The notes under the pieces: model-generated | The model's input: only the letters and a program-made list of their open reading frames with translations | What the model was told of the DNA's origin: nothing | Databases searched by the model: none | From: Stegostoma tigrinum | Lineage: Eukaryota | Reading direction: 5' to 3' | Assembly (NCBI RefSeq): GCF_030684315.1 | Contig: NC_081388.1 | Coordinates: 21,993,015-22,057,014 of the forward strand | DNA length: 64,000 nt | Shown: piece by piece, positions 3,472-63,284 of the stretch | How positions within the stretch are numbered: position 1 is the stretch's first letter | How the letters are laid out: every line of letters starts with the position of its first letter | Translations under genes and position numbers: made by a program

Positions 3472-5259
3472 TTACATGGTAGAATAGCGAAGGTGTGTGA
3501 GTGATAAGGGAAAGAGTGTGATGGATTGGGACAGACAAAGGCAAAGTTTGTGGCAACTTCATGATGGAGAGAGTCAGATTTACACACAGCCTTCCACTCA
3601 TTCTCATCTCTAAGAACTAACCATAAAAGAAGCCTGGGAAAAGAGGAAGAGCCAGACTGAATTCTCACGTTCATGCACAAAAACTCTCATATACATACAT
3701 GTGGACGTGGTGCCAATCAAGAGGGAAGTTCAGTACTGTATGGTGTCAAACTACTTGAATACTGGTGGACCTACACTCACTCAGGTCAGTGGAAATATTC
3801 CTCACAATCCTGATTGTGCATACATCAAATGCATGGTATGTCATGCACTGGACAGAAAAGCAGTTAAACCCAATTTAGCCCTGCTTCAATCCCCATCCCT
3901 GGAATTGTTTCAGTAGCTAGCTCTGTTTGTCTTTGTTTTAATTACTCATTTAGTTAAATTATCAACTTATAGCTTTGAATTTTTTTTCCCACTAAAAACA
4001 TGGTTACTTTGTTCCAAATTTAGTCTTTTTTGAAATTTGCTCACCAGGCCCCAAGTGAGAGAAAAAAAATTGAAATATGACTTCCCCTCGCTTGCCTGTA
4101 TCCCTTCCCACCCAACCACCCATCAAAAGTTTGGACAACCCTGCTGTGTATGACACTCTTCCAACAACATTACCACTGTACCCCCAACTCCCCCAGCATG
4201 GGTGATGTGAATTTCCTTATAAGCCTAATTCCAGGAGTTTTCTGTCCATTCTCTGAATATTCTCAACTGCATTTCTCATTTTTGGAATTGCTCCCATACC
4301 CAGGCACCCTATCAACCACAGACTTTGCATGAAAACTGAATTAAAATATGGATATTACTTGTGCCAATATCAGCAGACAAACATTTGATGTATTCCTGCA
4401 CTACTCTACTGTCTGCTATCTTAACAGCAGCATTAACAAATTTTAAATATATTGGTTAACAGTTTGTTAAGACAACATTAACGTTTTGCACATTGCATTT
4501 GTGAATTTTGATTTTTATTACAATAGCTTTTCTAGGCTTTAGTCTTATTTTGTGCTTGAATTGTTATCCAAAGCAAAACGTGCCCCTCTCTAGTGTAGGG
4601 AATACAGAGACTAATAGTCAGTATAGCTAGTGTTACTAAGTTCACTTATACAGACAAGTAAACTAGAATCTTCCTGCCGTGTTCAGTTGAGTACTATGCT
4701 AGGTGGTATACATGCCCATCCAGGCACAAGGAAACTGGATAACTGAAGTATAAGGCATTGCACTGTAGGACAATTATAATCCTGGCAAATATTCCCCAGT
4801 TGAGAAAAATAAATCGCCAGTCATAATGGGAGAGTTGATGATGACGACCTTTATTTTTGTGTACACTCCACTAGACAAAGCCAGTTCCTTGACTTAATCA
4901 TCATCTTTAATACCCTCACAGTGCCATTTTCTTCTGGCATTTTTCTTTTGATAAATCTGACCACACATTTTAAACAAGCTAATATGGTGCCAGCCCAAGA
5001 CACAGCCTGAAAGATTACTAAGCCTCTTACATATAGTTGGAGTCACAACTGCTTAATTCTGCATTATTATGCAATCAGTGACAGGACAGAACCTCTGTAC
5101 CAGGATAAATATGGTTCATTTTAATGAAGATTTTGTGTTTCGCAAGGAAAAACCCAGCTGAAGGGCTGAAGTCCACAGCACAGAGCAGCATCATTTTGTA
5201 AAAATAGATGAGATTAATCAATCAAGTCAGGAGATTATGGCGAATCTGGGTTTCAAAAT

Positions 5260-5886
5260 CAATAGACAATAGGTGCTGGAGTAGGCCATTCGGCCCTTCG
5301 AGCCAGCACCACCATTCATTATGATCATGGCTGATCATCCACAATCAGTATCCTGTTCCTGCCTTATCCCCATAACCCTTGATTCCACTATCTTTAAGAG
5401 CTCTATCCATCTCTTTCCTGAAAGTATCCAGAGAGTTGGCCTCCACTGCCCTCTGGGGTAGAGCATTCCATATATCCACCACTCTCTGGGTGAAGAAGTT
5501 TTTCCTCAACTCTGTTCTAAATGGCCTACCCTTTTTTTTAAACTGTGTCCTCTGGTTCTGGACTCACCTATCAGCGGAAACATGCTTCCTGCCTCCAGAG
5601 TATCCAATCCCTTAATAATCTTATACGCCTCAATCAGATCCCCTTTCATCCTTCTAAACTGAAGAGTATACAAGCCCAGTCGCTCCAATCTTTCAACATA
5701 TGTTAGTCCCACCATTCCGGGAATCAACCTCGTGAACCTATGCTGCACTCCCTCAATAGCAAGAATGTCCTTCCTCAAATTTGGAAACCAAAACTGCACA
5801 CAATGCTCCAGGTGCAGTCTCACCAGGGCCCTGTACAGCTGCAGAAGGATCTCTTTGCTCCTATACTCAATTCCTCTTGTTATGAA
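5260..5886 (-). mobile_element. CR1 3'-end fragment, young subfamily, copy 1
   Basis: ITRGIEYRSKE...CVQFW...ESRTRGHSL with a (CTATTGT)n tail. Near-identical to the copies at 15.3, 46.8 and 49.2 kb. Confidence 0.93.
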
Positions 5887-6659
5887 TTCTATATATTCCA
5901 GGAGGAGCTCTTGCAGTGCAACGGCAGTGTTCCTGCCCCTGAACCAGAAGGACAGGTTCAAAGTCCTACCTGCTCCAGAGGTGTGTCTTATAGGCTGATT
6001 AAAAATATTTATATGTTTAGGAGGAAAGAAATGTAGAGAAAGGCAGAGTTTCATAGCTCAGGTCGTCATCGGATAAGACACAGACCATATTATCAGCCTC
6101 AGTGCCATGCGTAGCTTAATGTGCCAACTTTGTTTCCCCACATAATAACAGGAACCCCTCAAATAGTTTGAGGCAACATTTCCATTTTTAGCTTTTGAGA
6201 TTACCCAATGCAGAACAAACCAAATATCAAACCTCAACCTCTAGCTGAAGTGGTTCAGAACAACAATAGCATATTGCCCTTATCTCTAAAATCATTGGTG
6301 AGCATACCCAATTGTGAATGGTTTTGTCAGAGTAAAAATGGGAGTATACACAAAATAGTTTACAATTACGTTGATAAATGCTGTTACTTTAAAATAAGAA
6401 CAGTCAGTGCAACAAAGGTGTTATCAATATAACCAGGTAAACTTAACTGTGGAGTGGACTCATGAAGAAATGTCAAAGAAACAATGTACAATAAACGTCT
6501 GGCATACTATGCCACACCAGGCGGTTGAGGTATACACCAAGATGATTCAAAATACCATTTTCTAATAGGCTTTAAAGCTCTAGATATTAATTGAAGGGCA
6601 TTCAATTGGCTCAACAGGTTTCCCTAGTCTTGAAATCTTCACGTTATGTAATCTAGACT

Positions 6660-6790
6660 CTGATGAAAGGTCTAGGCCCGAAACGTCAGCTTTTGTGCTC
6701 TTGCGATGCTGCCTGGCCTGCTGTGTTCATCCAGCTCCACACTTTGTTATCTTGGATGCTCCAACATCTGCAGTTCCCATTATGTCTAAT
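6660..6790 (+). mobile_element. PLE 3' terminal fragment with hammerhead core
   Basis: CTGATGAAAGGTCTAGGCCCGAAACGTC (6660-6687) followed by the PLE terminus ...gttcatccagctccacactttgttatcttgg...gcagttcccatt. Confidence 0.8.
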
Positions 6791-8339: not shown

Positions 8340-8857
8340 GGGGAGGCGACATGTCCATCCTGGGCCTCCTGCAGTGCCATAATGATGCCACCCATAGGTT
8401 GCAGGAACAGCAACTCATATTCCGCTTGGGAACACTGCAGCCCAATGATATCAATGTGGATTTCACCAGCTTCAAAATCTCCCCTTCCCGCACTGCATCC
8501 CAAAACCAGCCCAGCTCGTCCCTGCCTGCCTAACCTGTTCTTCCTCTCACCTATCCCCTCCTCCCACCTCAAGCCACACCTCCATTTCCTACCTAGAAAC
8601 TTCATCCCGCCCCCTTGACCTTTCCGTCCTCCTTGGACTGACCTATCCCCTCCCTACCTCCCCACCCATACTCTCCTCTCCAACTATCTTCTCCTCTATC
8701 CATCTTCAGTCCGCCTCCCCCCCCCCTCCATATTTATTTCAGAATCCTTTTCCCATCCCCCTTTTCTGATGAAGGTTCTAGGCCCAAAACATCAGCTTTT
8801 GTGTTCCTAAGATGCTGCTTGGCCTGCTATGTTCATCCAGCTCCACACTTTGTTACC
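8340..8857 (+). mobile_element. PLE fragment (GIY-YIG C-terminus, C-rich 3' region, degenerate hammerhead)
   Basis: DMSILGLLQCHNDATHRLQEQQLIFRLGTLQP..INVDF, and ctgatgaaggttctaggcccaaaacatc near 8766. It abuts a short minus-strand CR1/SINE tail at 8265-8325. Confidence 0.88.
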
Positions 8858-9200
8858 CATGACGAGTTTGTTGATTCTAAACTGCTCTACCAAGCCAACC
8901 ATTCAGGTGCTTCACCAGAGAAGCCATAATCCACATGGACTGCCGTGGTTCAAGAAAACTCACCACCAGCTCCTAAAAGGTACGTTAAGAATGGGGTGAC
9001 ATCTACATTCGATAAATGAATTTTCAAAATCCTTCAGTACAAGAATTTATCCAATGAAGTGGAAAATTGCCCCGGTTTCACCTATCCACAAAACGTAGGA
9101 CAAATTCAATCCACCCAATTAATGTCCCATCATTTACACTAAATTGTCAATAAGTGATGGAAAGTAGTATCAACAAGTGCCTACTCCCAAATAACATGCA

Positions 9201-9439
9201 ACTGATGTTAACAAGGTGTAGAGCTGGATGAACACAGTAGGCCAGACAGCAGAGGAGCAGGAAAGCTGACGTTTCAGGTCTGCATCCTTCTTCAGTTTTC
9301 TGAAGAAGGGTCCAGATCCGAAACAGCAGCCTTCTGGCTCCTTGGATGCTGCCTGTCCTGCTGTGTTCATCCAGCTCTACACCTTGTTATCTCAGACTCC
9401 AGCATTGGCAGTCCCTACTATCTCCGTGTTACTGATGTT
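9201..9439. mobile_element. Short fold-back PLE derivative with 9-bp TSD
   Basis: Inverted arms acaaggtgtagagctggatgaacacag... and ...ctgtgttcatccagctctacaccttgt. The centre has back-to-back ctgaagaagg...gaaac motifs. ACTGATGTT occurs at 9201 and 9431. Confidence 0.85.
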
Positions 9440-12761: not shown

Positions 12762-15049
12762 AAAGTGACTGAATCAGCATGTTGCACTACAGGATTTCTA
12801 TCTTTGGCATCCACTTAGGCATTGTTTGCAGATAACTAATTACAGGGTGCAGATTCAAGTAACTGGATGTTAGTTTCACGGATTGATTTCAACCACTTCT
12901 TAAACTCAAGAAGCTAGCAACACAGCTCGAAACCCATCTGAAAAATCTGCACATTAACTTTTTCTAAATGATATAACCCCAGCTTTCCACACTGTTTTAG
13001 TTGGTAAAGGTTATATTCAATGTGAAATTTAGCAAAAAAGACCAGTTTGCTCCAGGCTTTGTCTCTGCTCTTAGCAGGAGTTGGAATTAAGACACTAAAA
13101 CTTGTCTCAATTCTCTAGGAATAAAAGACATCCAGCACTTCCATTTGCTAGAAAGTGTAAATGTTGAATAAGAACGTGGAATTCACAAATAAAATGACAA
13201 TGAAACAACAAGTATGTATCATTACAAAGGAAATCTGGCAACAACTTTCAGAACATGCATTCAATAAGTTGCACACAGAGATCCAGAGCTGCTGTCCGAG
13301 AAATTGTCCCTCACAATGTGCAGTTGCAAGTCTTGCTGACAGATTGGGCACTGAAGAAACGTGTAATGAGACATGCTTGAAAAATTCCATCTACAGTTCA
13401 AAAAAATAAACAAGGAAGTAGTTTTGTGTTTCTCATAATGAAGGGTGACATTTTTAAAATCTCCTCACAATACACTTAAACTATAACTCAAGCAATAAGG
13501 ACAGAAATATCATGCAAAGCAAATGGACCAGCAACGACATTGATATATTTGCTTGGAATTACTCTCATTCCACAAAACATTCTTGTGATGTGTGCCCCAA
13601 TTTTCTTTTTTGCTACACTTCCAGCAACATTATGGAATGAGAAAATATCAAGCTAAAGAAGAACAATATCCTGCTGAAGAGCATTTGCTTATAACTTGAT
13701 GATAGGTTCCTTTAGGGAAGGTGCAATTACTGGACTCTCCGAGATGACCAACAGCTTGGTTGGTATTCAGGTCCTCAAAACAATTAGTCGGACAGTATCT
13801 CTTTCATGCTAATGCTTTTTTCAAAAGCAACACAGAAGCGAACTTTCATAATGCATGAAAAATAACAGACATTCTTTTCCTACTTGATTTTTTTGACCAG
13901 AGAAGAGAATCATTTGCAGAAGTCAACAATAATTAATGGTGAACAACAAAAATGTTGAAAAAGGTGGTGGTGAGCCACCTCTTGAACCACTGCATGTGGT
14001 ATAGGTACACCCACAATGCTGCCAGAAATATTCAGGATTTTGATCCAGTAACAGCAAAGGAACAGCAATATAGCTCCCAAGATAGGATGGTATTTGACTT
14101 GGAGACCTTGGAAGTGATGATGTTTCCATGCACCTGCTGTTTGTTTGTCCTTCTAAGTAATAGGTGCCACAGGTTTTGAAGATGTTGGCAAAGGATGTTT
14201 GGTGAATTGAACTAGTTCACAATTTATCCCAGACAAATATTTATAGAAATTTCACTGCAGAAGGAGCATTTGTTTTATTTCATAGCTATCTTGCACTAAT
14301 TCATTTTTTCTGCTCCTTCTCATTATAATGTTGCTTAACAAAATTTAGAATCTTATCATTTTCACATCAGTCCTGTTGACAACAATGTGGATTCCTCTTC
14401 CATCTGAGAGAGAGGTTGGCTTCAGGCTTCATTTATATAGAATCTAGTCTATAAGTCGAGATTGGACAAAATGGATGATGGTAGGCAGGGGATCACTAAG
14501 AGATTAAATTGCAGCTGAGTTCTTATTATCTACTGATTAATTGCAATCTGTGCATGAAACAAATCTCCATTTTAGCAGTCTCATAATCTGTTCCTTAAAA
14601 TAAAAATTGATCTGCTGTTATGTTGGTTTGGGTCCAAGGCACTTAGAGATTTTTTACCTGATGAAATGCCTTTAATTATGTTCAGAAGCAAAAAAAAGTT
14701 CACGCACCTATATGCTGAATGAGACAAAAATATTTTCATCCTTGAATGGGTCACCACAAGCATTATTTTCAATGGTGTGAATATTAAAATTTTATATTAA
14801 TAAATGTCTATGGTCTAACATTTAGAATGCAGGTAAATATGAGAAACTGGAGGAGGCAAGCAATTCAAGTTATAAACAAAGGCATTAAATGGAACGTTAG
14901 CTAGAAAAAGGCGAACAAGATGCCCTGACAAATGTTGGATGTGTACCTTGCCCTTAAGAATGCTCACCTTTAAAAGAACTCCATGTACTGTGTGTATTGT
15001 GACTTTGCCCAGTAGTTTGTCATCATGGTGTATGTGCTGCTGGCAGACT

Positions 15050-15254
15050 AAGTGTGAAGCTGGATGAACACAGCAGGCCAAGCAGCATCTTAGGAGCACA
15101 AAAGCTGACGTTTTGGGCCTAGACCCTGGCGTAGGGTCTAGACCTGAAACGTCAGCTTTTGTGCTCCTAAGATGCTGCTTGGCCTGCTGTGTTCATCCAG
15201 CTCCACACTTTGTCATTGCAGATTCTCCAGCATCTGCAGTTCCCATTATCTCTG
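15050..15254. mobile_element. Short fold-back PLE derivative
   Basis: Near-perfect inverted arms around ctagaccct-ggcgt-agggtctag. The right arm carries an extra tail of about 40 nt. Confidence 0.88.
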
Positions 15255-15290
15255 AGCACATACACCAGTTGGTTTATTGCACAACTGTCG

Positions 15291-15954
15291 GACAATAGAC
15301 AATAGACAACAGGTGCTGGAGTAGGCCATTCGGCCCTTCGAGCCAGCACCACCATTCATTATGATCATGGCTGATCATCCACAATCAGTATCCTGTTCCG
15401 GCCTTATCCCCATAACCCTTGATTCCACTATCTTTAAGAGCTCTATCCATCTCTTTCTTGAAAGTATCCAGAGAGTTGTCCTCCATTGCCTTCTGGGGCA
15501 GAGCATTCCATATATCCACCACTCTCTGGGTGAAGACGTTTCTCCTCAACTCTGTTCTAAATGGCCTACCCTTTATTTTTAAACTGTGTCCTCTGGTTCT
15601 GGACTCACCCATCAACGGAAACATGCTTCCTGCCTCCAGAGTGTCCAATCCCTTAATAATCTTATACGCCTCAATCAGATCCCCTCTCATCCTTCTAAAC
15701 TCAAGTGTATACAAGCCCAGTCGCTCCAATCTTTCAACATATGATAGTCCCCCCATTCCGGGAATTGACCTCATGAACCTATGCTGCACTCCCTCAATAG
15801 CAAGAGTGTCCTTCCTCAAATTTGGAGACCAAAACTGCACACAATGCTCCAGGTGCAGTCTCACCAGGGCCCTGTACAGCTGCAGAAGGACCTCTTTGCT
15901 CCGATACTCAATTCCTCTTGTTATGAAGGCCAGCATGCCATTAGCTTTCTTCAC
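15291..15954 (-). mobile_element. CR1 3'-end fragment, young subfamily, copy 2
   Basis: ORF 15385-15954 is the CR1 ORF2 C-terminus, followed by a (CTATTGT)n tail. Confidence 0.94.
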
Positions 15955-16081
15955 TATATATATATATCATGGCATTGTTAAAGAAAACTTCTGTTTCAAA
16001 GTGTTTGAAAATATAGCCTAGAAATAACAACAAACATGGAAAAGACTGCAAAGAACTTTTAGAAAATGAAAATAAGATTCA

Positions 16082-17494: not shown

Positions 17495-17726
17495 AAGAAG
17501 CAAACTGCAGATGGTGTAAATCAGGAACAAAAACATAAGTTGCTGGAAGAGCTCAGCAGATCTGGCAGCATCTGTGAAGAAAAAAAAATCACAGGTAACA
17601 TTTCGCATCTGGGTCCAGTTCTGAGGAAGGGTCACTGGATCTGAAACATTAACGGTGATTTTTTTTTCTTCACTGATGCTGCCAGGCCTACTAAACCTTT
17701 CCAGCAACTTCTGTTTTTGTTCCTGA
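17495..17726. mobile_element. Short fold-back PLE derivative (second family), inserted in the Gypsy LTR
   Basis: Inverted arms tcaggaacaaaaac..agttgctgga... and ...tccagcaacttctgtttttgttcctga, with the central motif ctgaggaagggtcactggatctgaaac. Confidence 0.8.
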
Positions 17727-20900: not shown

Positions 20901-21242
20901 CGCAACTACCTTCACTCTCAAGTGGTATTCCCCAAGCTCAATCAGACTGGTGCCAGTGTTCACTTCCATTGGAGTAGTCTGTAACTCGTGTTCCACTTGC
21001 TGCATTTTCTAGTAACAAAGCCAGTTATGATCCCTGTTTGAAGTCCAGTTAGGCTTCAGCTAGTAGGTGCTTTTGCATGATCACACCATTAAACCCACAC
21101 ATCATATGGTCTCTCATCATCTCACTTAGGGTTATACCAAAATCACATGCCTCTGCTAGCCATCTTAACCTCATCAAAAATCCCAAAACATATTTCCCTG
21201 GTTCTCAAACTGCTGAATAAAACAGATGGGATCTCAGTAAAT

Positions 21243-21425
21243 AAAAACCCAAAAGAATTGCGGATGCTGTAAATCAGGAACTAAAACAAAGTTGCTGGAA
21301 AAGCTCAGCAGGCCTGGCAGCATCTGTGAAGGAGAAAACAGTTAACACTTCAGGTTCGGTGACCCTTACTCAGAAATGGTTCACAGATGCTGCCAGACCT
21401 GCTGAGCTTTTTCAGCAACTTTGCT
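21243..21425. mobile_element. Short fold-back PLE derivative (second family), inserted in Gypsy gag
   Basis: Same arms as the 17.5 kb copy, flanked approximately by a duplicated ATCTCAG. Confidence 0.8.
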
Positions 21426-23994
21426 TGCTAGCATCTCAGAATCAGAGGAGACTTGAGGTCATAATATTCCTTAGCTAAATCCATTAACTCTTGAAATGGT
21501 TTAGTATCTGGTGCCTCAGGAAATGTCAGGCTCCTAATATCCAAAAAAAAAGCTGCAAGTCCACAAGCTGTTAGGCGAATTACTTATGCTCGATACAGAG
21601 TGATACTATTTGTTATCACATAGCCTGCCATTACACACTATCTATCGGTAATCACTAAGAGGCCGCATTAACAACTATTCACCCTCCTACCCAGATTGTT
21701 ATCAACTCCTTTGTCTATTCAACTGCTCTTCTCTCTCTTTGGGCTCTGTCCTATCATTCACTCCTTACCCCATGCCCCTCTCTATTTTGTGCATATAAAC
21801 CAACAGCTGTTTTCCCAGCTACCATTGGACCCAAAACACGAAGTCTGATTTTTTTCCTTCACAGAAGCTGCCAGACTGCCTGAATTTTTCCAGCAACTTC
21901 TGTTTATGTAGAAGAATTAATTGTTGGTTTCTGCCTGTCCCAATGTTATTTGCATGGAAAAATTAGCAGGTTTTTTCCACATACTGGACCCGGATTCTGA
22001 GTTAAGCTTCCCAAATAGTAGCATGATGCCAGAAATGCTTACCCTAACTCAAAGGCAACTGTTGAGAGAATCTCTTCAAATGCGCCATTTTCTCTTGTCA
22101 TCTCTGAAATAACTCCATGAAGGTCAGAATCTGTCACTAAGTCACCCTTTATTTCCACATACATAGTACATGACACTTACCCAGGTAGCTTACAGCTAGC
22201 TCCTACAGTGAACAGAATTCCTGACATTCCTGTTTATATCTGTCAGACAGAACTCCATAACTGGACGAGGTTAACAGTCCCAGCAAACTCTATGAAGTCC
22301 ACTAGGCTGACTTTGTTCCAATTACCATACAGCCTTTCTGTAACCTCCCTTAACCCTGTCCCCAGGCCTCTACCATTAAAAGTCATGAACTGGTGGTAAG
22401 GTGAGGAGTGTTGTTTCGGCATTTTTCATGCCAACCATGCCTCTAAACAATGCTTTCTAATATTAGATTGGTATCGGCTCAAATGAGGGAATCACAAGCA
22501 CGTGGATTCCTTGGAATCATTAGACTCACACACTAAAGAATCCTGATTTTCCAAATGGTTTCTAATTTTTCCCAAATATTCAGACATCGCTCTTGTCCAC
22601 TGTTAAAGAGAGTGGTTTTAGACAAAAACCTCAAATATTAACCACTTTAAGTAGAACATGTTAAATGCTGTGCTATCACTTCAGTAATACTATAGTGATA
22701 GATTTGCTTTATACATTCCTATTCCACAGTTGGTGGTGTCTTGAACTATTAAGGCCATATGCTGTGGAATTTTCATCCTAAACTTCTCAAAAATAATCTA
22801 CTGTCCTTAAAACACACTTCTTTGACCAAATCCAGACATTTCCATTGGTGATATTTGTCCATTTCTATTCCTATTGAAGCTCATGATCAAATCGCTTCAG
22901 GACCGTGTATAAACATGGGTTCTAAATGTTAAAAAGAGTGGAAATGTTCCCAAACCAAAAATGACCTATGCCGGGTTACTGTCCTATTTTGGCTGACTGG
23001 TACCTTAACCAAGCAGCATTCTTCTTGATGCATGGCTAAGGTAATGATGACTATGGATTACCATGTCATATTATTAGGGATAGCGAAAACAAAGAGAGAA
23101 TGATGAGGACGTCACTGCAGGTTGTGTTTCTGTTGTCATAACCACAAGTCCTAAGCACTATGGACATTTCTGATTGCAAGACACATTTTGGAATTACAAG
23201 AGTGCTGATGCAGCAAAAATGGCTGTAGATGTAACAAATGACATCTGGAGGGGGAAGAGATCCCTGAAACATCACATTCAAAATGTGCAAAAGAAACTCC
23301 AAATAACCTTTCAAAGGAGGAAAAAGGAAAGTCAATAAAGACTGGACTGTGATCTTATGGCCACACAGACATAACCTGCTAAGCAGAAAGCCACACCATG
23401 CAGATTATGTCCCAAACCGCAGATACATTTTGAAGAATGCACAAGGACAGATGTCAAAAACAGCTTCATCTCTACTGGATGGGTTATTGGGACTAAAAAG
23501 TGTGAACTAGCCTGGATTAGCACGCTGTGAAGGTCATACTTGAACCATCACACAGTAATCCATGGGTTGCAGATAAAGGGGACTCTCACTCTGAGCCAGC
23601 CAATTAGCAAGACAGACAAAATAGACTACAAAAAGGCTCTCTCACCCTACTTAATGGAATTCAGTCACAGTCGTAAGGAATCAGAAACACTCTCATACAA
23701 CCTGTGAAAATAAGAATTTTGAAATTCATTGTTGAACTACCTATATCACATGACCAGTAACCAGTTTTGCAATAGCTGCAACATTCAACTAGTAGCCCTT
23801 TGGGAACAATCCAGAGACTGGTCTGCATATCTGCTTTCTTTCACAAAGTGCTTTGATCATTTTGGACTCATCTCTTTCTAATCTGTTTGTTCCATTATGA
23901 ATTATTTTCAAATTCAGTCATTAATAAGCTCTCTTTGTTCACTCAAGAAAGCCTGGTTAAATTAGCTCATTTTAAAACATAAGAGTCTACGGTT

Positions 23995-26583: not shown

Positions 26584-28833
26584 GAGCATTTTGATGATAG
26601 TGACCATAACTGCCTCACATTCTACATAGCTATGGAGAAGGAGAGGATTAGGCAGAATGGGAGGATATTTAATTGGGGAAGAGGAAACTATGATGCGATT
26701 AGACATGAGTTAGGAAGCATGGACTGGGAGCAGTTGTTCCATGGTAAGGGAACTATAGACATGTGGAGACGGTTTAAGGAACAGTTGTTGGGAGTGATGA
26801 GTAAATATGTCCCTCTGAGACAGGCAAGAAGGGGTAAGATAAAGGAACCTTGGATGACGAGAGCGGTGGAGCTTCTTGTGAAAAGGAAGAAGGTAGCTTA
26901 CATAAGGTGGAGGAAGCTAGGGTCAAGTTCAGCTAGAGAGGATTACATGCAGGCAAGGAAGGAGCTCAAAAATGGTCTGAGGAGAGCCAGGAGGGGCCAC
27001 GAGAAAGGCTTGGCAGAAGGAATCCGGGAAAACACAAAGGCATTTTACACTTACGTGAGGAATAAGAGAATGGTCAAAGAAAGAGTAGGGCCGATCAGGG
27101 ATAGCATAGGGAACTTGTGTGTGGAGCCTGAGGAGGTAGGGAAGCCCTAAATGAGTTTTTTGCTTCTGTCTTTACGAAAGAAACCAACTTTGTAGTGAAT
27201 GAAACCTTTGAAGAGCAGGTGTGCATGCTGGAATGGATAGAGATAGAGGAAGCTGATGTGCTGAAAATTTTGTCAAACATTAAGATTGACAAGTCGCCAG
27301 GCCCGGATCAGATTTGTCCTCGGCTGCTTTGGGAAGCGAGAAATGCAATTGCTTCGCCACTTGCGAAGATCTTTGCATCCTCGCTCTCCACTGGAGTCGT
27401 ACCTGAGGACTGGAGAGAGGCAAATGTAATTCCTCTCTTCAAGAAAGGAAATAGAGAAATCCCCGGCAATTATAGACCGGTAAGTCTCACGTCGGTCGTC
27501 TGCAAGGTGTTAGAAAGGATTCTGAGGGATAAGATTTATGACCATCTGGAAGAGCATGGCTTGATCAAATACAGTCAACACGGCTTTGTGAGGGGTAGGT
27601 CATGTCTTACAAACCTTATCGAGTTTTTTGAGGATGTGACTAGAAAGGTTGATGAGGGTCGAGCTGTGGATGTGGTGTATATGGACTTCAGTAAGGCATT
27701 TGATAAGGTTCCCCATGGTAGGCTCATTCAGAAGGTCAGGAGGAATGGGATACAGGGGAACTTAGCTGCTTGGATACAGAATTGGCTGGCCAACAGAAGA
27801 CAGCGAGTGGTAGTACAAGGAAAATATTCTGCCTGGAAGTCAGTGGTGAGTGGAGTTCCACAGGGCTCTGTCCTTGGGCCTCTACTGTTTGTAATTTTTA
27901 TTAATGACTTGGACGAGGGAATTGAAGGATGGGTCAGCAAGTTTGCAGACGACACAAAGGTTGGAGGTGTCGTTGACAGTGTAGAGGGCTGTTGTAGGCT
28001 GCAGCGGGACATTGACAGGATGCAGAGATGGGCTGAGAGGTGGCAGATGGAGTTCAACCTGGATAAATGCGAGGTGATGCATTTTGGAAGGTCGAATTTG
28101 AAAGCTGAGTACAGGATTAAGGATAGGATTCTTGGCAGCGTGGAGGAACAGAGGGATCTTGGTGTGCAGATACATAGATCCCTTAAAATGGCCACCCAAG
28201 TGGACAGGGTTGTTAAGAAAGCATATGGTGTTTTGGCTTTCATTAACAGGGGGATTGAGTTTAAGAGTCGTGAGATCTTGTTGCAGCTCTATAAAACTTT
28301 GGTTAGACCGCACTTGGAATACTGCGTCCAGTTCTGGGTGCCCTATTATAGGAAAGATGTGGATGCTTTGGAGAGGGTTCAGAGGAGGTTTACCAGGATG
28401 CTGCCTGGACTGGAGGGCTTATCTTATGAAGAGAGGTTGACTGAGCTCGGTCTCTTTTCATTGGAGAAAAGGAGGAGGAGAGGGGATCTAATTGAGGTAT
28501 ACAAGATAATGAGAGGCATAGATAGAGTTGATAGCCAGAGACTATTTCCCAGGGCAGAAATGGCTAGCACGAGGGGTCATAGTTTTAAGCTGGTTGGTGG
28601 AAAGTATCGAGGGGATGTCAGAGGCAGGTTCTTTACGCAGAGAGTTGTGAGAGCATGGAATGCGTTGCCAGCAGCAGTTGTGGAAGCAAGGTCATTGGGG
28701 TCATTTAAGAGACTGCTGGACATGTATATGGTCACTGAAATTTGAGGGTGCATACATGAGGATCAATGGTCGGCACAACATTGTGGGCTGAAGGGCCTGT
28801 TCTGTGTTGTACTGTTCTATGTTCTATGTTCTA
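26584..28833 (+). mobile_element. Young 5'-truncated CR1 LINE (end of APE endonuclease, RT, 3'UTR and tail)
   Basis: Starts at EHFDDSDHN (end of the endonuclease domain). ORFs 26632-27150 and 27195-28745 are joined by one 1-bp frameshift. It has RT motifs and ends in a (GTTCTAT)n tail. Confidence 0.96.
27195..28745 (+). CDS. CR1 ORF2 reverse transcriptase region (open frame within a truncated element)
   Basis: 516-aa frame with KSPGPD, NYRPVSLTS, QHGF, YMDFSKAFDKVPH, SGVPQGSVLGPLLF, KFADDTK and RPHLEYCVQFW. It is not an autonomous gene. Confidence 0.9.
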   Translation: MNETFEEQVCMLEWIEIEEADVLKILSNIKIDKSPGPDQICPRLLWEARNAIASPLAKIFASSLSTGVVPEDWREANVIPLFKKGNREIPGNYRPVSLTSVVCKVLERILRDKIYDHLEEHGLIKYSQHGFVRGRSCLTNLIEFFEDVTRKVDEGRAVDVVYMDFSKAFDKVPHGRLIQKVRRNGIQGNLAAWIQNWLANRRQRVVVQGKYSAWKSVVSGVPQGSVLGPLLFVIFINDLDEGIEGWVSKFADDTKVGGVVDSVEGCCRLQRDIDRMQRWAERWQMEFNLDKCEVMHFGRSNLKAEYRIKDRILGSVEEQRDLGVQIHRSLKMATQVDRVVKKAYGVLAFINRGIEFKSREILLQLYKTLVRPHLEYCVQFWVPYYRKDVDALERVQRRFTRMLPGLEGLSYEERLTELGLFSLEKRRRRGDLIEVYKIMRGIDRVDSQRLFPRAEMASTRGHSFKLVGGKYRGDVRGRFFTQRVVRAWNALPAAVVEARSLGSFKRLLDMYMVTEI

Positions 28834-31464: not shown

Positions 31465-32856
31465 ATATTATTTTGACAAAGTGTGAAGCTGGATGAACAC
31501 AGCAGCCAAGCAGCGTCTCAGGAGCACAAAAGCTGACGTTTCGGGACTAGACCCTTCATCAGAGAGGAGGATGGGGAGAAGGTTCTGAAATAAATAGGGA
31601 GAGAGGGGGAGGCAGACTGAAGATGGAGAGAAGATAGATGGAGAGGAGAGTATAGGTGGGGAAGTAGGGAGGGGATAGGTCAGTCCAGGGAGGACGGACA
31701 GGACAACGAGGCGGGATGAGGTTAGTAGGTAGGAAATGGAGGTACAGCTTGAGGTGGGAGGAAGAGATAGGTGAGAGGAAGAACAGGTTAGGGAGGCGGG
31801 GACAGGCTGGGCTGGTTTTGGGATGCAGTGGGGGGGGAGGGGACGAGCTGGGCTGGTTTCGGGATGCAGTGGGGGGAGGGGAGATTTTGAAGCTTGTGAA
31901 GTACACATGGGAACCCTGCAGCCCAATGGTATCAAAGCGGAATATGAGTTGCTGTTCCTGCAACCTTCGGGTGGCATCATTGTGGCACTGTAGAAGGCCC
32001 ATGATGGACATGTCGTCTGAGGAATGGGAGGGGGAGTGGAAATGGTTCATGACTGAGAGGTGCAGTTGTTTATTGCGAACCGAGCGGAGGTGTTCTGCAA
32101 AGCGGTCCCCAAGCCTTCGCCTGGTTTCCCCAATGTAGAGGAAGCCACACTGGGTACACCACTGCACAATAAACAACTGCACCTCCCAGTCGCGAACCAT
32201 TTTAACTCCCGTTCCCATTCCTTAGACGACATGTCCATCATGGGCCTCCTGCAGTGCCACAATGATGCCACCCGAAGGTTGCAGGAACAGCAACTCATTT
32301 TCCGCTTGGGAACCCTGCAGCCCAATGGTATCAATGTGGACTTCACAAGCTTCAAAATCTCCCCTTCCCCCACCGCATCCCAAAACCAGCCCAGCTCGTC
32401 CCCTCCCCCCACTGCTTCACAAAACCAGCCCAGCTCGTCCCCTCCCCCCACTGCTTCACAAAACCAGCCCAGCTTGTCCCCACCTCCCTAACCTGTTCTT
32501 CCTCTCAACTATCCCCTCCTCCCACCTCAAGCCGCACCTCCACTTCCTACTTACTAACCTCATCCCGCCTCCTTGACCTGTCCGTCCTCCCTGGACAGAC
32601 CTATCCCCTCCCCACCTAAACTCTCCTCTCCACCTATCTTCTTTTCTCTCCATCTTCAGTCTGCCTCCCCCTCTCTCCCTATTTATTTCAGAACCCTCTC
32701 CCCATCCCCATCTCTGATGAAGGTTCTAGGCCCAAAACGTCAGCTTTTGTGCTCCAGAGATGCTGCTTGGCCTGCTGTGTTCATCCAGCTTCACACTTTA
32801 TTATCTTGGATTCTCCAGCATCTGCAGTCCCCATTATCTCTGATATTATTTTGACA
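31465..32856. mobile_element. Penelope-like element: inverted (fold-back) pair of GIY-YIG-plus-3' arms with a 14-bp flanking direct repeat
   Basis: The minus arm (about 31476-32160) encodes CTQCGFLYIGETRRRLGDRFAEH...RRLQEQQLIFR. The plus arm (about 32164-32842) is its inverse. ATATTATTTTGACA occurs at 31465-31478 and 32843-32856. Confidence 0.93.
31535..31562 (-). ncRNA. Minimal hammerhead ribozyme core in a PLE arm (sense to the CACNA1A pre-mRNA)
   Basis: Minus strand reads CTGATGA-A-GGG-TCTAGT-CCC-GAAAC-GTC: CUGAUGA box, helix II, GAAA box and GUC cleavage triplet with a palindromic ACGT helix III, as known for PLE-associated minimal hammerheads. Activity is untested. Confidence 0.7.
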
Positions 32857-36744: not shown

Positions 36745-37430
36745 TTATTCATGGGATATGGGCATTGCTGATTAGGCCAGCACTTATTACTTGACCTCAT
36801 TGCCCAAATGATAGTGGAGAGTCTTCCACATCGGTGGGTCCGGAGTCAGGCCTCCTTAGAAGTACTTTAGTTAACCAGATGGGTTTTTAATGGCTATCAA
36901 TGGTGATTAAATGGTCACCATTTGGCCAGCTTTTTAATGATAGTGAAATTTTGAATTCAACAAGGAAAAAAATCTACCTGTCATTGTGGGACTCAAACCC
37001 GTAACCTCAGAATATTAGATTGAGGATCTGAATTACTAGGCCAGTGACACCACCTCCCCCATAGTGATAATGTCACTGGACTAGAAATCCAGAACCTCAG
37101 AGCGATGTTCTGGGCATGGGTTCAAATTCTGCAATGGTAACAGGTGAAAATTCAATTCTATAACAAACTGGAATGTAAAAACTAGCCTAATAGGAAGCAT
37201 GTAATAACTGTCAACTAACATAAATTCTCATCTAGTTCACTAATGTTCTACGGGGAAGCAAATACTTTATCCTTAACTGGTCTGGCCTACATGGGACTTC
37301 AAGCACACAGTTATGTGTTTGGCTCTTAACTATCCCCTGAAATGGTCTAGTAAGCCACTCGCGTTAGGGCAATTAGGCATGAGCAATAAATACTGAGCTA
37401 GCCACTGACACCAATATCCCATGACCAATA
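36745..37430. mobile_element. Head-to-head pair of the same tRNA-derived SINE
   Basis: The minus copy at about 36745-37059 directly abuts the plus copy at about 37060-37430. They share the aacccatctggttcactaatg-like and ggcaataaat motifs. Confidence 0.72.
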
Positions 37431-44269: not shown

Positions 44270-46284
44270 CATGGTTGGAACACCGTATTGAGAAATTAGG
44301 ACAAGCAACCTATTTTTCAAAGCTGGACTTACACAAAGGATACCGGCAGATACCTTCATCCACGGGAGCAAAGAAAATTTCAGCTTTTGTAACACCAAAT
44401 GGAGTGGACAAATTTAAAGTCATACCATTCGGTATGTAAAATGCACCAGCAACATTTTGAAGACTAACCAATAAGGTCAGTGGGATTACCCAATTGTATG
44501 GTATAAATCGCTGATCTGGTGATTTTTAGTCACACATGGAAGGAACATTTGCAGCATTCATCTCAATTGGTCGAACATCTTCAGAAGGTGAGCTTGGTGA
44601 TAAAGCTGGCCAAGAATGAGTTCATAAAAGCCCAAGTCACGTTCCTTGGGAATGTCATTGGACATGAACAAATGGCTCCACCGGATATGAAAACAAATGT
44701 TATCCAGGAGTTTCCCATCCATCGATGAAAAGGGAAGTATTACAATTCCTGGACGGAGCAGTTTTTTAATTGAAATTTAGTACCAAACTTTAGGAGCATG
44801 GTTGCTCCACTGACTGCCTTCCTAAGAAGTGCAGGAAATTCCAGTGGACAAGAGGATTATCACAAGGCAGTTGGCAGCCTGAAAGCTGTGCCAACCACCA
44901 CCCGAGTATTAGCCATACCTAATTATGCAAAGCTATTCAAAGTGGCTATTAACACTAGTGATTTGGGTGATGGTGGTGTACTCTTCCAAGATGACAAAGA
45001 GAAGATAGCAAGACCTATTGGATATTTTTCCAGTAAGTTAAATATTCATCAAAAGGAATACTTCACAATTGAGAGAGACCATCAGTTTGGTGTTGGCATT
45101 GCAACATTTATAAAAACCAAAAGAAATGCAGATGCTGTAAATCAAGAACAAAAACAAAGTTCCTGGAAAAGGTCAGCAGGTCTGGCAGCATCTGTGGAGG
45201 AGAAAACAGAAGTTCTGAGGAAGGGTCACACCTGACGCGAAACATTATCTCTGTTTTCTCCTCCACAGATGCCACCAGACCTGCTGAGCTTTTCCAGCAA
45301 CTTTGTTTTTATTTCAACGTTTATGTTGCCAATACTAATATACTCATCAATATATACTAATCATAACCCTTTTACACTTTTGGAAAAATGTAAAAGGTAA
45401 AAATAGCATACTCTTTATAATGGAGTTTATTGTTACAGATATTTAAATGTGAAAATTATACATGCTGCAGGATGAGAGAATGCAATTGCCGAAGCATTGT
45501 CACTATTTTGAAGGAAATTAAGGTGTCCGGTGGAGGAAGAAAGGGATTGAGATGAGCTGTATTATTGAATGTTTGTGTGCTTAGAATCAATGGTTATGTA
45601 CAGTGGTGTACCAAACAGTGTAAGACTAAAGATTTTTTATAAGAAGAAAACCATCTTTGTATATTGGCTGTTCATTTTTAAGGGGGTGGAGCTATGTTGA
45701 TACTACAGCTTTTAGAGATATATTTTGTCCTTTTATTTGAAGAGAGGTTTTCAACAATAGGCATTGAGCTGTTTCCTCCAAGTCAATAAAGTAAACAGCT
45801 TGAGGAGCCTTGGGGCTTTTTATTTAATTTCAAACAATAGAAGTGGCATGAATGAGTGGAGTCAGGCTCCCACAGAACCGGGGTTATAGTTCAGCTTTCA
45901 GCAATTATTGAGTTTTGAAGTTGGCTATGGAAGCTCTGTCTCACATGTAGTTCTGGCAGCAGAGAGAGAATCTGTTTTACTGAATTTTCTTTGCCAAGGG
46001 TGTGTTTACAGGGTGTTACTAATATTGGAGCAGCTGCTGCTTAGTAGTTAAATAATCTATTATTCTTTTCGGTTTTCCAATAGAGTTAAAGTTACACAAA
46101 TTCTTCTTTGTACTGTTTGTATTTTAACTGTGCAGTAAGAATAAACTATGTTTTGCTTAAAATTGAGTAGCGTACCAACCAAATTACACCTAGAACACGG
46201 CACCTTAAAGAAGGTAAAAGTTAGGATGTAGGCTATCTCTTTGATATGTCTGAAAGGGGTTTGGTCTGGTCCAGTCCACAACCA
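44270..46284 (+). mobile_element. Decayed Gypsy element 3' half (RT-RNase H, PPT, probable 3' LTR at about 45695-46284); Gmr1-like domain order
   Basis: Motifs EKLGQATYFSKLDL.KGY.QIP, SAFVTPNG...PFGM.NAPATF, VTFLG.VIG, RPIGYFS.KLN.HQK.Y.TIE and H..G.EN..AEALS are followed by the purine tract aagggggtggag and a TG-initiated LTR-like segment containing AATAAA. Confidence 0.8.
45111..45312. mobile_element. Short fold-back PLE derivative (second family), inserted in the RNase H region of the Gmr1-like element
   Basis: Inverted arms around the centre ctgaggaagggtcacacctgacgcgaaac. It interrupts the LQHF|NVY coding remnant. Confidence 0.82.
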
Positions 46285-46812: not shown

Positions 46813-47493
46813 GTACAGCAGGCAGTGAAGAAAGCTAATGGCATGCTGGCCTTCATAACAAGAGGAATTGAGTATAGGTGCAAAGAGGTCCTTCTGCAGC
46901 TGTACAGGGCCCTGGTGAGACTGCACCTGGAGTATTGTGTGCAGTTTTGGTCTCCAAATTTGAGGAAGGACACTCTTGCTATTGAGGGAGTGCAGCATAG
47001 GTTCACAAGGTCAATTCCCGGAATGGCGGGACTATCATATGTTGAAAGATTGGAGCGACTGGGCTTGTATACACTTGAGTTTAGAAGGATGAGAGGGGAT
47101 CTGATTGAGGCGTATAAGATTATTAAGGGATTGGACACTCTGGAGGCAGGAAGTATGTTCCCGTTGATTGGGGGGGTGGGGAAAGAGTCCAGAACTAGAG
47201 GACACAGTTTAAAAATAAGGGGTAGGCCATTTAGAACAGAGTTGAGAAGAAACTTCTTCATCCAGAGAGTGGTGGATATATGGAATGCTCTGCCCCAGAA
47301 GGCAGTGGAGGCCAACTCTCTGGATTCTTTCAAGAAAGAGGTGGATAGAGCTCTTAAAGATAGTGGAATCAAGGGTTATGGGGATAAGGCAGGAACAGGA
47401 TACTGATTGTGGATGATCAGCCATGATCATAAATGAATGGTGGTGCTGGCTCGAAAGGCCGAACGGCCTACCCCTGCACCTATTGTCTATTGT
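46813..47493 (+). mobile_element. CR1 3'-end fragment, young subfamily, copy 3
   Basis: ORF 46825-47406 is the CR1 ORF2 C-terminus, with a G-rich in-frame insertion near 47170 and the tail ctattgtctattgt. Confidence 0.94.
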
Positions 47494-49209: not shown

Positions 49210-49897
49210 AAGAAAGCAACCATGCAGGTACAGCAGGCAGTGAAGAAAGCTAATAGCATGTTGGCCTTCATAACAAGAGGAATTGAGTATAGGAGCAAAG
49301 AGGTCCTTCTGCAGCTGTACAGGGCCCTGGTGAGACTGCACCTGGAGTATTGTGTGCAGTTTTGGTCTCCAAATTTGAGGAAGGACACTCTTGCTATTGA
49401 GGGAGTGCAGCGTAGGTTCACAAGGTCAATTCCCAGAATGGCGGGACTATCATATGTTGAAAGATTGGAGCGACTGGGCTTGTATACTCTTCAGTTTAGA
49501 AGGATGAGAGGAGATCTGATTGAGACGTATAAGATTATTAAGGGATTGGATACTCTGGAGGCAGGAAGCATGTTTCCGCTGATGGGTGAGTCCAGAACCA
49601 GAGGACACAGTTTAAAAATAAAGGGTAGGCCATTTAGAACAGAGTTGAGGAAAAACTTCTTCACCCAGAGAGTGGTGGATATATGGAATGCTCTGCCCCA
49701 GAAGGCAATGGAGGCCAACTCTCTGGATACTTTCAAGAAAGAGATGGATAGAGCTCTTAAAGATAGTGGAATCAAGAGTTATGGGGATAAGGCAGGAACA
49801 GGATACTGATTGTGGATGATCAGCCATGATCATAATGAATGGTGGTGCTGGCTCGAAGGGCTGAATGGCCTACTCCAGCACCTATTGTCTATTGTCT
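49210..49897 (+). mobile_element. CR1 3'-end fragment, young subfamily, copy 4
   Basis: ORF to 49809 is the CR1 ORF2 C-terminus, followed by the tail ctattgtctattgtct. Confidence 0.94.
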
Positions 49898-50857
49898 AAA
49901 AGCTGGATAAAAATCTTACACAAGTGGAGTTTGAGCTGGTATTACATAAACAAAATCATTAGCACCTAGGCTGCACCAAAAAAAAATGCAGAACACACAC
50001 TTTTCAGAACATGAGTAAAGAATATGGATTAAAATCAAAAAAGATGAATTAACCTAAACAATTCCTAGAATTCCCAGTGCCAGAAATTCTAAGACACATG
50101 TACCCATTGTCATTTCTTTTCAATTCTTCTGCTAAGTGTGTGTGGATATAAAGACATGAAAAAGGAACAGATTAGGACTTGGTACCAGTATAGACTTTCA
50201 ACAATCTGTGCATCTTATCCCGATGATCATGTGTTCATTGGTGTGCATGTGACCAAGTGAGCACAGGCATGAAAAAAAATCCTATTCATCACCACAACCT
50301 CTCTGAATGGTTCCTTAAAATAGGTACAGCCCCACGTCAGCAACACCAGTTAATGCATCCTTCTCCCATCAGGCATTTAACTAGCTCAGATTCACTACAA
50401 ATATAAAAGTATGCAATTATGCACCAAATAAAAGGTTTCTTAAATTTATTCTAAAGCTATGATCAGATGGGGTGTACCAATAACATTTTTTTTCAACTGC
50501 AAATAGCTGTTTATATATCCTTAAAGTGAAATTGGCTGCATCACAGTGTGGAGGAATTTTTAAGCATAGCAACATTTTTGGTAGTGATTGGTTTTATTTT
50601 GTTTTTTTTTTGCAAATAGTCCTCTCACTGCAATGGCAAAGCAATCGCCATCCAATTTACATGAAGGGCCAGTCACAGAAAATGCTACCATTATACGAGT
50701 GGAACTGACATTGTACTATCATTTATGCCCGCGAGACTGACATATGTACTTTCTACTGTGAAATTCACATCATTTTGATTTTTTTAATCAATCGATTTAC
50801 ACTATTTGCTTGCATGTAAGGTATTAAAAGATAATCAATAAATTAGACAAAATAAAA

Positions 50858-52364: not shown

Positions 52365-53190
52365 AAACCAAAACAAAATGCTGGAGAAACTCAGCAGGTC
52401 TGGCAGCATTTGAAGAGTGAGAAATAGAGTTAACATTTTGAGTCCAGTGTGACTTTTCAGTGTGAAATGAAAGAGGAACAGCCAGGGGAGGGTAGGGAAT
52501 GTGAAAAAAATGACTATTCTCTGAAGTTGTGGAACTCAGTATTGAATTCTACAGGCTTTAAAGAGCCTAAGCAGAGGTTGTTCCTCCAGCTTGTGTTAAA
52601 TCTCATTGGAATACTGTAGAGGGCCAAGGGTGGAAAAGTTAGCATGGTAGCAAGATGGTTGAAAGAAACGACATGCAACTGGAAGGTTGTCTCCAATGCA
52701 GCAGAAAAGTTCCACAAAGTGTTCACACAGACTATATTTGGTCTCATAAATGCAAAGGAGGCCACATTGTGAATAGTGAATATGGTAGATTAGACTGAAC
52801 TCGCAGAATGCTACCTTACCTGAAAGATTTGGTTGTAGGATGAAGAGAGAGATGAAGGGACAAGTGTTACATCTGCTGCAATTGCATGGTAAGGCGCCAT
52901 GCAGGAGTGAGGAAGTGTTAGGAGTGATGGACGTGTGGACCAAATGTCATAGAAGAAATTATCCCTGCAGAATACTGGTAGTAGATGAGAGGGGAAGATA
53001 TCTTTGGTGGTGGTATCCTGCTGTGGCAGAAATGGCAGAAGATGAACATGGAAACTGGTGGTTTACAAAGTGAGGACAAGAGGAACCCTATTGTTATTTC
53101 AACAGGTACAGGAAGGGGTAAAGGTTGAATTGTGAGAGATGGATCATATATGATTGAGAGGCCTGTTAATCACGGTGAGGGGTACTCACC
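52365..53190 (-). mobile_element. Old PLE fragment (GIY-YIG region and terminus)
   Basis: PCNCSRCNTCPF...CGLLCIYETK resembles PLE CGLLYIGETK. The terminal motif gctggagaaactcagcaggtctggcagcat is present. Confidence 0.7.
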
Positions 53191-60603: not shown

Positions 60604-63284
60604 AATTACCTCCCTATATTCTCAGTGTTTAAGTAATTCTAACATATTCTCACTCGTACACAAGATTTTAAAACCATTGAAAGGGTGAGTTTAATAAAAG
60701 TTAAATCTTTTCTTTCTTCTTATACCAAATGCAACTTAGACTTCTTTCTTTTGATGTTTATTGATCTATATATGGAAAATGTGCATATCCAAAAATGGCA
60801 TACAGCTCAAATCTTTATTGCGAAAACAAAAGTTTTAGATTATTTTGCAGATAAAAACTTCCAATCAAAAGGTAATACATTTACTCACTCATATCTCTTT
60901 CCAATTGTGTTCACGTGGTTTGTATTCCAAGTTTGTTCGCACGGATATATTACTTAATCATGTTCAAATTAATTTACAACTATATTATCCAATCATATTC
61001 AAACTAATACATGTGATTATATTATTCAATCACATTTACAAATTCTAGCAGTTATATATCTTCTAACTGAGGGCATGTATTCTCTGATTACAGAAAATTT
61101 ATGCAGTCTATTTTCAACCCTATTAGTCCCTACTATTGCCAACACCTAGGCAGGGTTAAGTTTTGTTCAGGATCATTTGCATTTCTCTCAATCTTACATT
61201 CACTCTGCAAAATTGTAGAAAGAAGTGTGTCATGATGATACAACATATGAACTACTGATTTTCAAAATCCATCAGCTGATTTAATATCTTGAACTTTCAT
61301 TGACTGACATTTTAAAAAGGGATTGAAACACTGATGTAAAATTAACACAGGCGTCACCCAACCCATCCAGGTTGGCCAGATTTCATGAAATCACTGAATT
61401 AAACTAAGATCAATGAAACCAATCAGCCAGGCTCTCCAGTAGTTGCAAAAGGGTCCTCATCTCCAACTTAATTTATAGCACTATGAGAATTTTCATATAT
61501 TGAAGATGAAACATCACCTACAGTCACCAAGCCTGGAAACAAACTTCAGCAAACAAGCTATTATTTCAAGGGACTATTTTGCCTACAGCAGAACTGAACA
61601 TAGGCTCAAGAAAGCTGTCTCGCCTCTCAAGAAGAAAAGCACCTGGTAGCAGAACTGACTGAAAAGGACATCAAACAGAAAAGAACAGAAAGTATAACTG
61701 CAATATTCACTGCTGCTGATAGTCCAAGAAACCAAATAATCCTGGCCTTGGGTTAAAATTGTATCGCTCAAGGATGTCAAAAGGACATTAAACTAAACAT
61801 AATTATCTTGTACTGAAGATTATTCCATTTTAAGAGAGTGTGTGTGGATGAGTGAGTAAGAGAAATGAGTGTGTTTCTGTGTTTGTCTGTGTGTCAGGGA
61901 GAGACAGAGAGAGAGAGGGGAAGATGAGTGAGTAAGAGTGTGAATGAGAATGACTAAGTGAGTGAGAGAGTATGAGTGCGCGTGTTTGGAGGGAGTGGTG
62001 GGGGAGAGCAACAGAATGAAAGATGCATGCTTGGCAGTGCATTTTTATTAATTTTCTCAGGGTTAGCAAATAATAAACCTACTCCTTTTAATTCAAGAAA
62101 TTTTGTGATTGACTCCTTAATACTACACTAAAAATCATTTAATTACATTTTTAATTAAAGGCAGGCATAGCTTTGAGATAAGAAGAATTGTCAAGACCAA
62201 GCAAAAAAGTTGAAAAGTGAGGAGCCAGTTAACTGTCTCTCACCTGATTGTAGTCAATAAATGTGTGAGTTTGTGAGGAAGTGTCAACCCTAGTGCATTA
62301 ATCTTGCATTAATGATTGGAATTCACCTAATATTGTCAGATTCTGAGAGTTTTGACTTGCTATTAGAAAATAAATTACAAAATTTACCAATTTTCAACAC
62401 CTATCATAAACTAAGACATCAACTTTGTCTTCTGGTCAAGGTGATACAGCTACTGCATGCAACAATGCCACTTAATTATCCACTGGGGCTCACTCAATGT
62501 TGTTACAGATATCAGACCTATTCTCTTTAGTCAGTGTTAACCACCTCTTCCATAACCAGATTATCACCTGTCACAGTCAGATGTTAATCTGACTCAATGT
62601 CTGTGCTTACAATGGAATGATTCTTGAGGTGTAATATTAAGATTGATAGATTCAGTGGTCGTGGCCACATTGGTAACAAAAACATCGGTAGAATTTTGAT
62701 AAATCATCAACCACTGAACCAGCAACCCCGAATATTTTTACATTGAAGATACATCAATGGTTTTATCATTGTCATGTACTGAATTAGTGCACTGTCTTTT
62801 ATCCTCAGTACTTAGGACGCAGCTATGCCCAAAACACATGAAAACAACCTGGATGAGGGCAATGATGCAACAGTTTACTAATGGCTCAAAAACAGGCAGG
62901 ATTGAGAGTTATGAGATGGCAAGGAAGCTTCAAGATGATTCAGACAAGTTGTATGAGTGGATAAAAACATGGCAGATGCAGTACAGCATGGCTAAATATG
63001 AACATGTCTCCTTCACCACTAAAAACAGAAAGGGAAAGTGTCATTTTAATGGTGACATATTGGGAAATGTGGATGTATGAAGGGATTCAGATGTCCATCT
63101 ACACTAGACTGGCAGATGCAGCAAGCAAGGAAAGCGACTAGTATATTGGCCATCATGACATGACGATTTGAGGTCTGGTGTAGCCTCAGCCATTGGTAAG
63201 ATTTTAAAAGTCCAACATTAGAATCCTAGAGTCATACAAGCACAGAAACAGGCCCTTCAGCCCAACTCATCCATGAACTCATCC

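Follow-up and report, generated by a model that had tools for sequence, protein, structure and literature searches.

The short fold-back elements (hairpins) of the window, the whole 64-kb stretch of DNA analysed in this study, are the smallest insertion form of two Penelope (PLE) families that are Neptune-like; they were probably, though by no means certainly, made anew from run-off cDNAs that start at two nicks and are joined by microhomology. As elements, they are plain transposon debris of a familiar kind, present in great numbers. Their value lies in the large record of breakpoints left in stubs, which makes the PLE mRNA start site, the two-nick mechanism with priming from both nicks, and the use of uncleaved RNA as the main template testable. 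The data lend no support to a retrozyme, a viroid, or self-cleavage as the explanation.

The preliminary description listed five fold-backs, at 9.2, 15.05, 17.5, 21.25, and 45.1 kb, and took them for inverted, tailed PLE termini with minimal hammerhead remains in two sequence families. These points were confirmed. All five are real inverted-arm structures (arms 79–94% complementary), the 9.2- and 15.05-kb copies belonging to family A and the 17.5-, 21.25-, and 45.1-kb copies to family B, and a tail on one arm is present in each of them. Positions within termini are given relative to C3 of CUGANGA, which is set as 0. The 9.2-kb element (9209–9424) consists of an untailed arm on the minus strand (9209–9295), which is the 3′ terminus of PLE family A from C3 (0) to +90 (3′ end site 1), and a tailed arm on the plus strand (9297–9389; −3 to about +90), continued on that strand by a PLE tail of about 35 nt (9390–9424) ending at 3′ end site 2 (+128; compare the bimodal 3′ ends of the sample below). 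The arms meet head-to-head at 9296–9299; this junction is the loop of the hairpin and borders the hammerhead at its front edge. A 9-bp target site duplication (TSD) had been reported for this copy, and the repeat ACTGATGTT is exact (9/9) at both flanks, 9201–9209 on the left and 9431–9439 on the right. It is probably the core of a longer TSD: when lengthened to 9195–9209 and 9425–9439, the repeat covers 15 bp with three mismatches (12/15 match), a length consistent with the 9–17-bp TSDs at other copies.

The motif in these termini resembles the minimal type I hammerhead described in the available text of PMC4209133, with a predicted cut after GAAACGUC (or GUU), and the 3′ product would start at +28. 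At the centre of the 9.2-kb copy, the sequence quoted earlier and CTGAAGA...GAAAC on each strand are present, but neither core is intact. The tailed-arm core on the plus strand (CUGAAGA at 9300–9306, stem II at 9308–9319, and GAAA at 9320–9323) reads GAAAC-AGC, that is, U16.1 of the cleavage triplet is lost. The untailed-arm core on the minus strand (CUGAAGA at 9295–9289, predicted cut after 9268) keeps GUC, while G10.1-C11.1 is lost and stem II is broken. The motif is found on both strands because the element is an inverted repeat in which each motif follows its own antisense copy, and transcription of the rod reaches the antisense arm first. Both strands fold into rods (plus strand, −141 kcal/mol, z −14.8; minus strand, −140.6 kcal/mol, z −13.2). 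Unpairing the core from the rod is calculated to cost 22.5–23.5 kcal/mol; the modelled fold would disfavour self-cleavage by about 23 kcal/mol. A strict minimal-hammerhead descriptor (CUGANGA, stem II with G10.1-C11.1, GAAA, palindromic 15.2-16.2, and UH) had no match on either strand of the 64-kb window, and the hammerhead was absent from the 30 matches of an Rfam scan of the window at E ≤ 10, which were generic miRNA hairpins. Inspection ruled out a type II or III topology with the cut upstream of CUGA: the sequence upstream has no triplet and stem III that would suit it.

In the other fold-backs of the window, the arms were cut at different points. The 15.05-kb copy (15046–15254, family A, tail on the right) has both arms cut at +7 and no CUGA core on either. 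The family B copies lie at 17503–17726 (arms −5 on the plus strand and +14 on the tailed minus strand), 21239–21426 (−5 on the tailed minus strand and +45), and 45106–45313 (−4 on the plus strand and +33 on the tailed minus strand). With −3/0 at 9.2 kb, the longer arm thus stops at the front edge of the ribozyme, and 20–33 nt separate it from the predicted cut at +28, which lies downstream. Of the five, only the 9.2- and 45.1-kb copies have a direct TSD, that of the latter being 14 bp with two mismatches; the flanks of the 17.5- and 21.25-kb copies gave no convincing direct TSD. In place of a direct TSD, the 15-kb hairpin has a perfect 13-bp inverted flank duplication (15026–15038 and 15255–15267); among 20 sampled hairpins lacking a direct TSD, no such inverted match longer than 9 nt was found.

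The window also holds related copies that had not been listed before. A long family A fold-back of 1.37 kb (31474–32843) carries GIY-YIG coding remains, a TATA-like box in both arms, and a perfect 14-bp TSD, and its junction lies near 32160, inside the endonuclease coding region. Solo stubs were likewise missing from the earlier list, for example a tailed family A stub on the plus strand (6658–6787) whose 5′ end at −2 shows the hotspot described below without inversion. A longer, 5′-truncated, untailed family A copy lies at 8344–8855 (plus strand). A young family A copy on the plus strand, a piece of the reverse transcriptase (RT) region, runs off the end of the window (63255–64000), and an older diverged PLE copy lies on the minus strand (52366–53182). 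Pfam gave no match on two further PLE pieces. Other repeats were noted in passing: an open RT frame of 537 aa at 27132–28745 (RVT_1, E = 5e-35) and four LINE 3′ ends of 650 bp that are 92–97% identical (5252–5886, 15296–15955, 46813–47493, and 49228–49898), CR1-like in our reading; an inverted pair of 400 bp and 90% identity from a LINE-like RT region (186–584 and 1651–2048); and a hairpin with 42-bp arms from an unrelated repeat (37008–37112), with a second copy near 56.0 kb.

The parent elements were recognised in long copies (L086, L118, and L132) that carry DKG, YIDD, and a GIY-YIG-like motif with two cysteines, and in L086 a CX4CxxC linker motif precedes the endonuclease. A CX2-5CxxC linker in this position is a Neptune trait that is common to Nematis too, according to the accessible part of PMC8557442. 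By this linker motif, the parent is described as Neptune-like. Family B long copies are about 50% identical to the family A protein. The Pfam matches of the parent (RVT_1, E = 0.007; GIY-YIG, E = 0.0025) are both below the curated cut-offs, and all parent copies seen contain stops or frameshifts; RT plus a C-terminal GIY-YIG in a single ORF, as in endonuclease-positive (EN+) PLEs, are recognised by motifs in frame-disrupted copies. Complex insertions of EN+ PLEs, as described in the portions available of PMC3846280 and PMC8557442, have an inverted 5′-truncated copy, an optional 30–40-bp tail, and a TSD. Here, partial-tandem pseudo-LTRs (pLTRs) with an inverted 5′ piece were found in L135 and L145–L174, and tails and TSDs are present in the sampled hairpins described below. 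L135 is full-length, with an inverted piece, a 5′ pLTR, an ORF (ATG at +167 from C3), and a 3′ pLTR, the unit being 3,596 nt. Among other arrangements, a family B insertion (L088:6496–7213) shows nested inversions in four alternating pieces. At L102:4912–5547, a 39-bp head-to-tail array of about 10 units of the TATA-to-C3 segment (−48 to +1) lies upstream of a family A terminus; it could stem either from the template having jumped several times at the site where the RNA presumably starts, or from later slippage.

We sampled the genome (3.2 Gb, 835 contigs) blindly with 134 stretches of 10 kb at round coordinates of large contigs (1.33 Mb), split into 74 discovery and 60 hold-out stretches, one stretch being all N. 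Termini were located by an anchor at +40 to +98, independently of the junction. The 414 anchors gave 401 aligned termini, of which 354 were kept (score ≥70, 3′ end at or beyond +75, not at an edge). The hotspot window of −8 to +9 was fixed on the discovery set, in which four end assignments were corrected by hand; later counts were automatic. The 30 best BLAST loci were excluded from the counts, because they had been chosen by likeness to the junction. The sample contained 64 hairpins (roughly 48 per Mb) and 135 solo stubs; extrapolated to the whole genome, this makes roughly 150,000 of the former and 320,000 of the latter. Their 3′ ends are bimodal, near +90 and +130.

The 5′ ends are concentrated at the front edge of the hammerhead. 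Among termini at risk, 58/105 of family A in the discovery set and 51/98 in the hold-out set ended in −8 to +9, and the corresponding values for family B were 24/29 and 39/43. The earlier proposal that junctions cluster at the ribozyme was thereby upheld: the hold-out set has 90 ends in this interval against 7.8 expected (P = 7e-62). For family A, the end hazard is 0.038 per nt in the hotspot and 0.004–0.005 on either side. The upstream edge is sharp, as 51 of the 53 family B ends in −9 to 0 lie at −6 or downstream. Solo stubs (A, 54/85; B, 38/50) and hairpin pairs (A, 55/88; B, 25/40) show the hotspot alike. In some solo stubs (L057, on the minus strand near 9280; L236; and L264), the TSD and the 5′ end are separated by a short inverted piece derived from the 3′ end of the element itself, resembling a much-reduced second arm.

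Promoter-like motifs stand upstream of the hotspot in long copies. TATTTA[TA] was found at −34/−35 in 53 of the 64 long family A copies with a locatable core (75 examined), and no other TATA-like word occurs in the 3,596-nt unit. Of 29 long family B copies, which had been fetched by a query containing the motif, 20 have TATAAA at −32 to −34, followed by TCAGTT with A at −4; this A is the predicted +1 and the first base of the 4-bp stem I. The spacing corresponds to that of a Pol II TATA box and initiator. From the TATA-like box at −33/−35 and the initiator-like motif at −4, both short and of low information, we infer that the hotspot is the mRNA start, located at the hammerhead. Sub-family A1 has no A at −4. 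In Drosophila virilis Penelope, the promoter is TATA-less and internal, and an intron precedes the hammerhead (PMC2377424 and PMC4209133, in the text available), so the TATA/initiator layout is not universal. The stubs lack the TATA box and would have no promoter of their own, and the hairpins are likely dead on arrival.

Two other explanations of the hotspot were weighed against an mRNA start. Self-cleavage at +28 had been suggested to define the template end. Four termini (A, 3/227; B, 1/85; together 4/312 at risk) do stop at +28, and a recognisable minimal core is kept in the families, the strict descriptor being passed by 46/164 family A and 1/62 family B sampled termini reaching C3. The main ends lie at −8 to +9, upstream of the cut, and no hold-out end (0/157) falls at +28; ends in +26 to +30 number 10 against 7.1 expected (P = 0.18), and the three family A cases sit on an AGCT palindrome, two of them representing one insertion. 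Without a significant excess at +28, self-cleavage does not set the main end, and we regard it as a very improbable cause. It is rather unlikely, though less so, that the hairpins form anew while the hotspot marks a place where RT stops or RNA is processed, either the hammerhead's front edge or a pyrimidine-rich tract. This would agree with the lack of a cap-derived extra G (18/106 against 25.5 expected), with the C/T-rich sequence just upstream in family A, and with the near-full-length copies reaching +9, of which 4/24 stop in the hotspot and 20/24 run past it; under an mRNA start, the latter would require read-through RNAs or strand transfer. However, the fold should halt RT on its 3′ side (+19 or later) rather than once crossed, family B shows the same edge despite a different upstream sequence, and both families have TATA-like boxes at start-site spacing.

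With the hotspot taken as an mRNA start, the pLTR could be compared with retroviral U3-R, a possible but doubtful scheme in which a TATA/initiator start at the first base of the hammerhead is followed by a strong-stop cDNA. RT would start internally, about 90–130 nt downstream, and yield this cDNA; its jump to the 3′ pLTR would restore the promoter and produce partial tandems, and failure of the jump from both nicks would leave hairpins. If this scheme were true, the hammerhead in the first 35 nt would act as a self-decapping switch that removes RNA from the template pool.

As for the inversion, two nicks, one in each DNA strand and about 14 bp from each other, are likely made by the enzyme of the element, and one cDNA would be primed per nick from two internal start sites. 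Primed at the 5′ pLTR, both cDNAs would likely run off the mRNA 5′ end just ahead of the hammerhead, and their two ends are probably joined by microhomology. A TSD of 9–17 bp was present in 44/64 hairpins and 0/223 controls. Exactly one arm is tailed in 57/64 hairpins; in length, the tailed arm exceeds the untailed one in 24 and falls short of it in 33, and the arms are equal in 7. Rare variants common to both arms were enriched in family A (17/80 against 1.4 expected; 34/44 pairs usable) and not clearly so in family B (2/44 against 0.8 expected; 15/20 pairs usable). Such sharing may reflect either one template or later conversion, and both arms may derive from one template under two-nick priming. 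In two hairpins (L280 and L288), one arm seems to belong to a different sub-family than the other, a situation that would require two templates. The 64 hairpins fall into 62 junction classes, two of which recur. Two exact seams recur genome-wide with 631 and 80 perfect matches, and the commoner one has a 4-base microhomology. The first 20 copies scored for the 631-copy seam were evenly divided, 10 with the tail on the long arm and 10 with it on the short one; for the first 30 copies of the 80-copy seam, it was on the right in 20, left in 7, both in 1, and unscored in 2. An identical seam was found on several sub-lineages.

These features bear on two other routes to the hairpins. A single cDNA, or an antisense template as proposed in the accessible text of PMC3846280, might fold back and self-prime the second arm, and the shared rare variants, the short overlaps at several junctions, and the near-palindromic TCAGTTCTGA in family B would suit this. 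However, a tail absent from the template cannot appear on the arm copied from it, and in 33 of the 57 unequal pairs the shorter arm alone is tailed, as is the short arm in half of the scored copies of one seam; extra trimming steps would be needed. Since self-priming cannot tail the copied arm alone, two cDNAs from opposite nicks fit best, and we consider self-priming improbable. The other route, raised in the preliminary description, is independent spread of the hairpins as non-autonomous units that resemble retrozymes or viroids. The test proposed there, whether identical junctions recur at independent loci, comes out positive at face value, as exact seams and two of the sampled junction classes do recur; the tail, however, changes sides on the same seam (10:10 and 20:7), which is impossible from copying one master that keeps its tail on one side, and the recurring seams are therefore best explained by joining events that took place repeatedly at one and the same end. 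In addition, the sampled junction classes differ in 62 of 64 cases, solo stubs share the end site, one seam occurs on several sub-lineages, untailed arms stop at the fixed site 1, and none of the 64 hairpins has a strand-biased A>G run (largest imbalance, 3). As for a viroid-like rod carrying a pair of ribozymes, only 15 of the 64 sampled hairpins extend to C3 in both arms (26 do so in one arm and 23 in none), two intact cores are present in 2/64, and the cores would be buried in the duplex. Unit spread as the main source of hairpins is thus largely refuted, and apart perhaps from rare passenger copies we hold such units to be highly unlikely.

Comparison with known systems places most features of these insertions. 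Hammerhead viroids have a rod-like fold with core sequences in both strands; in the present elements, the two-strand cores are a plain consequence of the inverted repeat, and there is a risk of taking hairpins of this kind for retrozyme or viroid-like RNAs. Non-LTR retrozymes, as defined in the available part of bioRxiv 10.64898/2026.07.22.740005, are head-to-tail tandems with at least two complete cores. The hairpins resemble them in being PLE-derived, non-coding, and hammerhead-bearing; in contrast, each is one head-to-head inversion, and most of the cores are truncated or mutated; they lack both head-to-tail units that each have a complete hammerhead and a fixed-structure unit that is amplified. 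The minimal hammerheads of metazoan PLEs, in the accessible text of PMC4209133, are type I without helix III, and pairs on opposite strands 100–700 bp apart are mentioned there; hammerheads in pLTRs and nearby opposite-strand pairs are already published. The present motif resembles them in the lack of helix III, the palindromic 15.2-16.2, and the extra base before stem II. That text proposes cleavage and circles as templates, whereas our breakpoints suggest that the template is mainly RNA that has not been cleaved.

Inverted insertions with one tail and flanking TSDs are likewise already published in the available portions of PMC3846280 and PMC8557442, the latter of which describes the making of PLE tandem and inverted ends as undefined. 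We found nothing on a 5′ hotspot at a PLE hammerhead, twin priming in PLEs, or mini-hairpins in the literature searched, chiefly the article text of openly accessible papers. In the same two sources, Adineta Pen2/Pen2a share the head-to-head inversion, one-sided tail, TSD, and partial tandems with the insertions studied here, which show them in short and long form. In our hairpins, the unit is only about 130–260 bp, is present at the density given above, and has a sharp 5′ hotspot where the hammerhead begins at its front edge. The distribution of tails speaks against self-priming as put forward for Pen2/Pen2a in PMC3846280. The Poseidon element PAc of Anolis belongs to another clade, and its ORF begins inside the hammerhead, whereas the first ATG found here is at +167; the text of PMC11167929 available to us describes neither a genomic 5′ hotspot nor a hairpin product. 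According to that text, insertion of PAc does not require hammerhead cleavage, and RT in vitro starts at two internal sites that define the tail, much as the ends near +90 and +130 do here. PAc also cleaves and extends both strands in vitro, and with this the two-nick model agrees.
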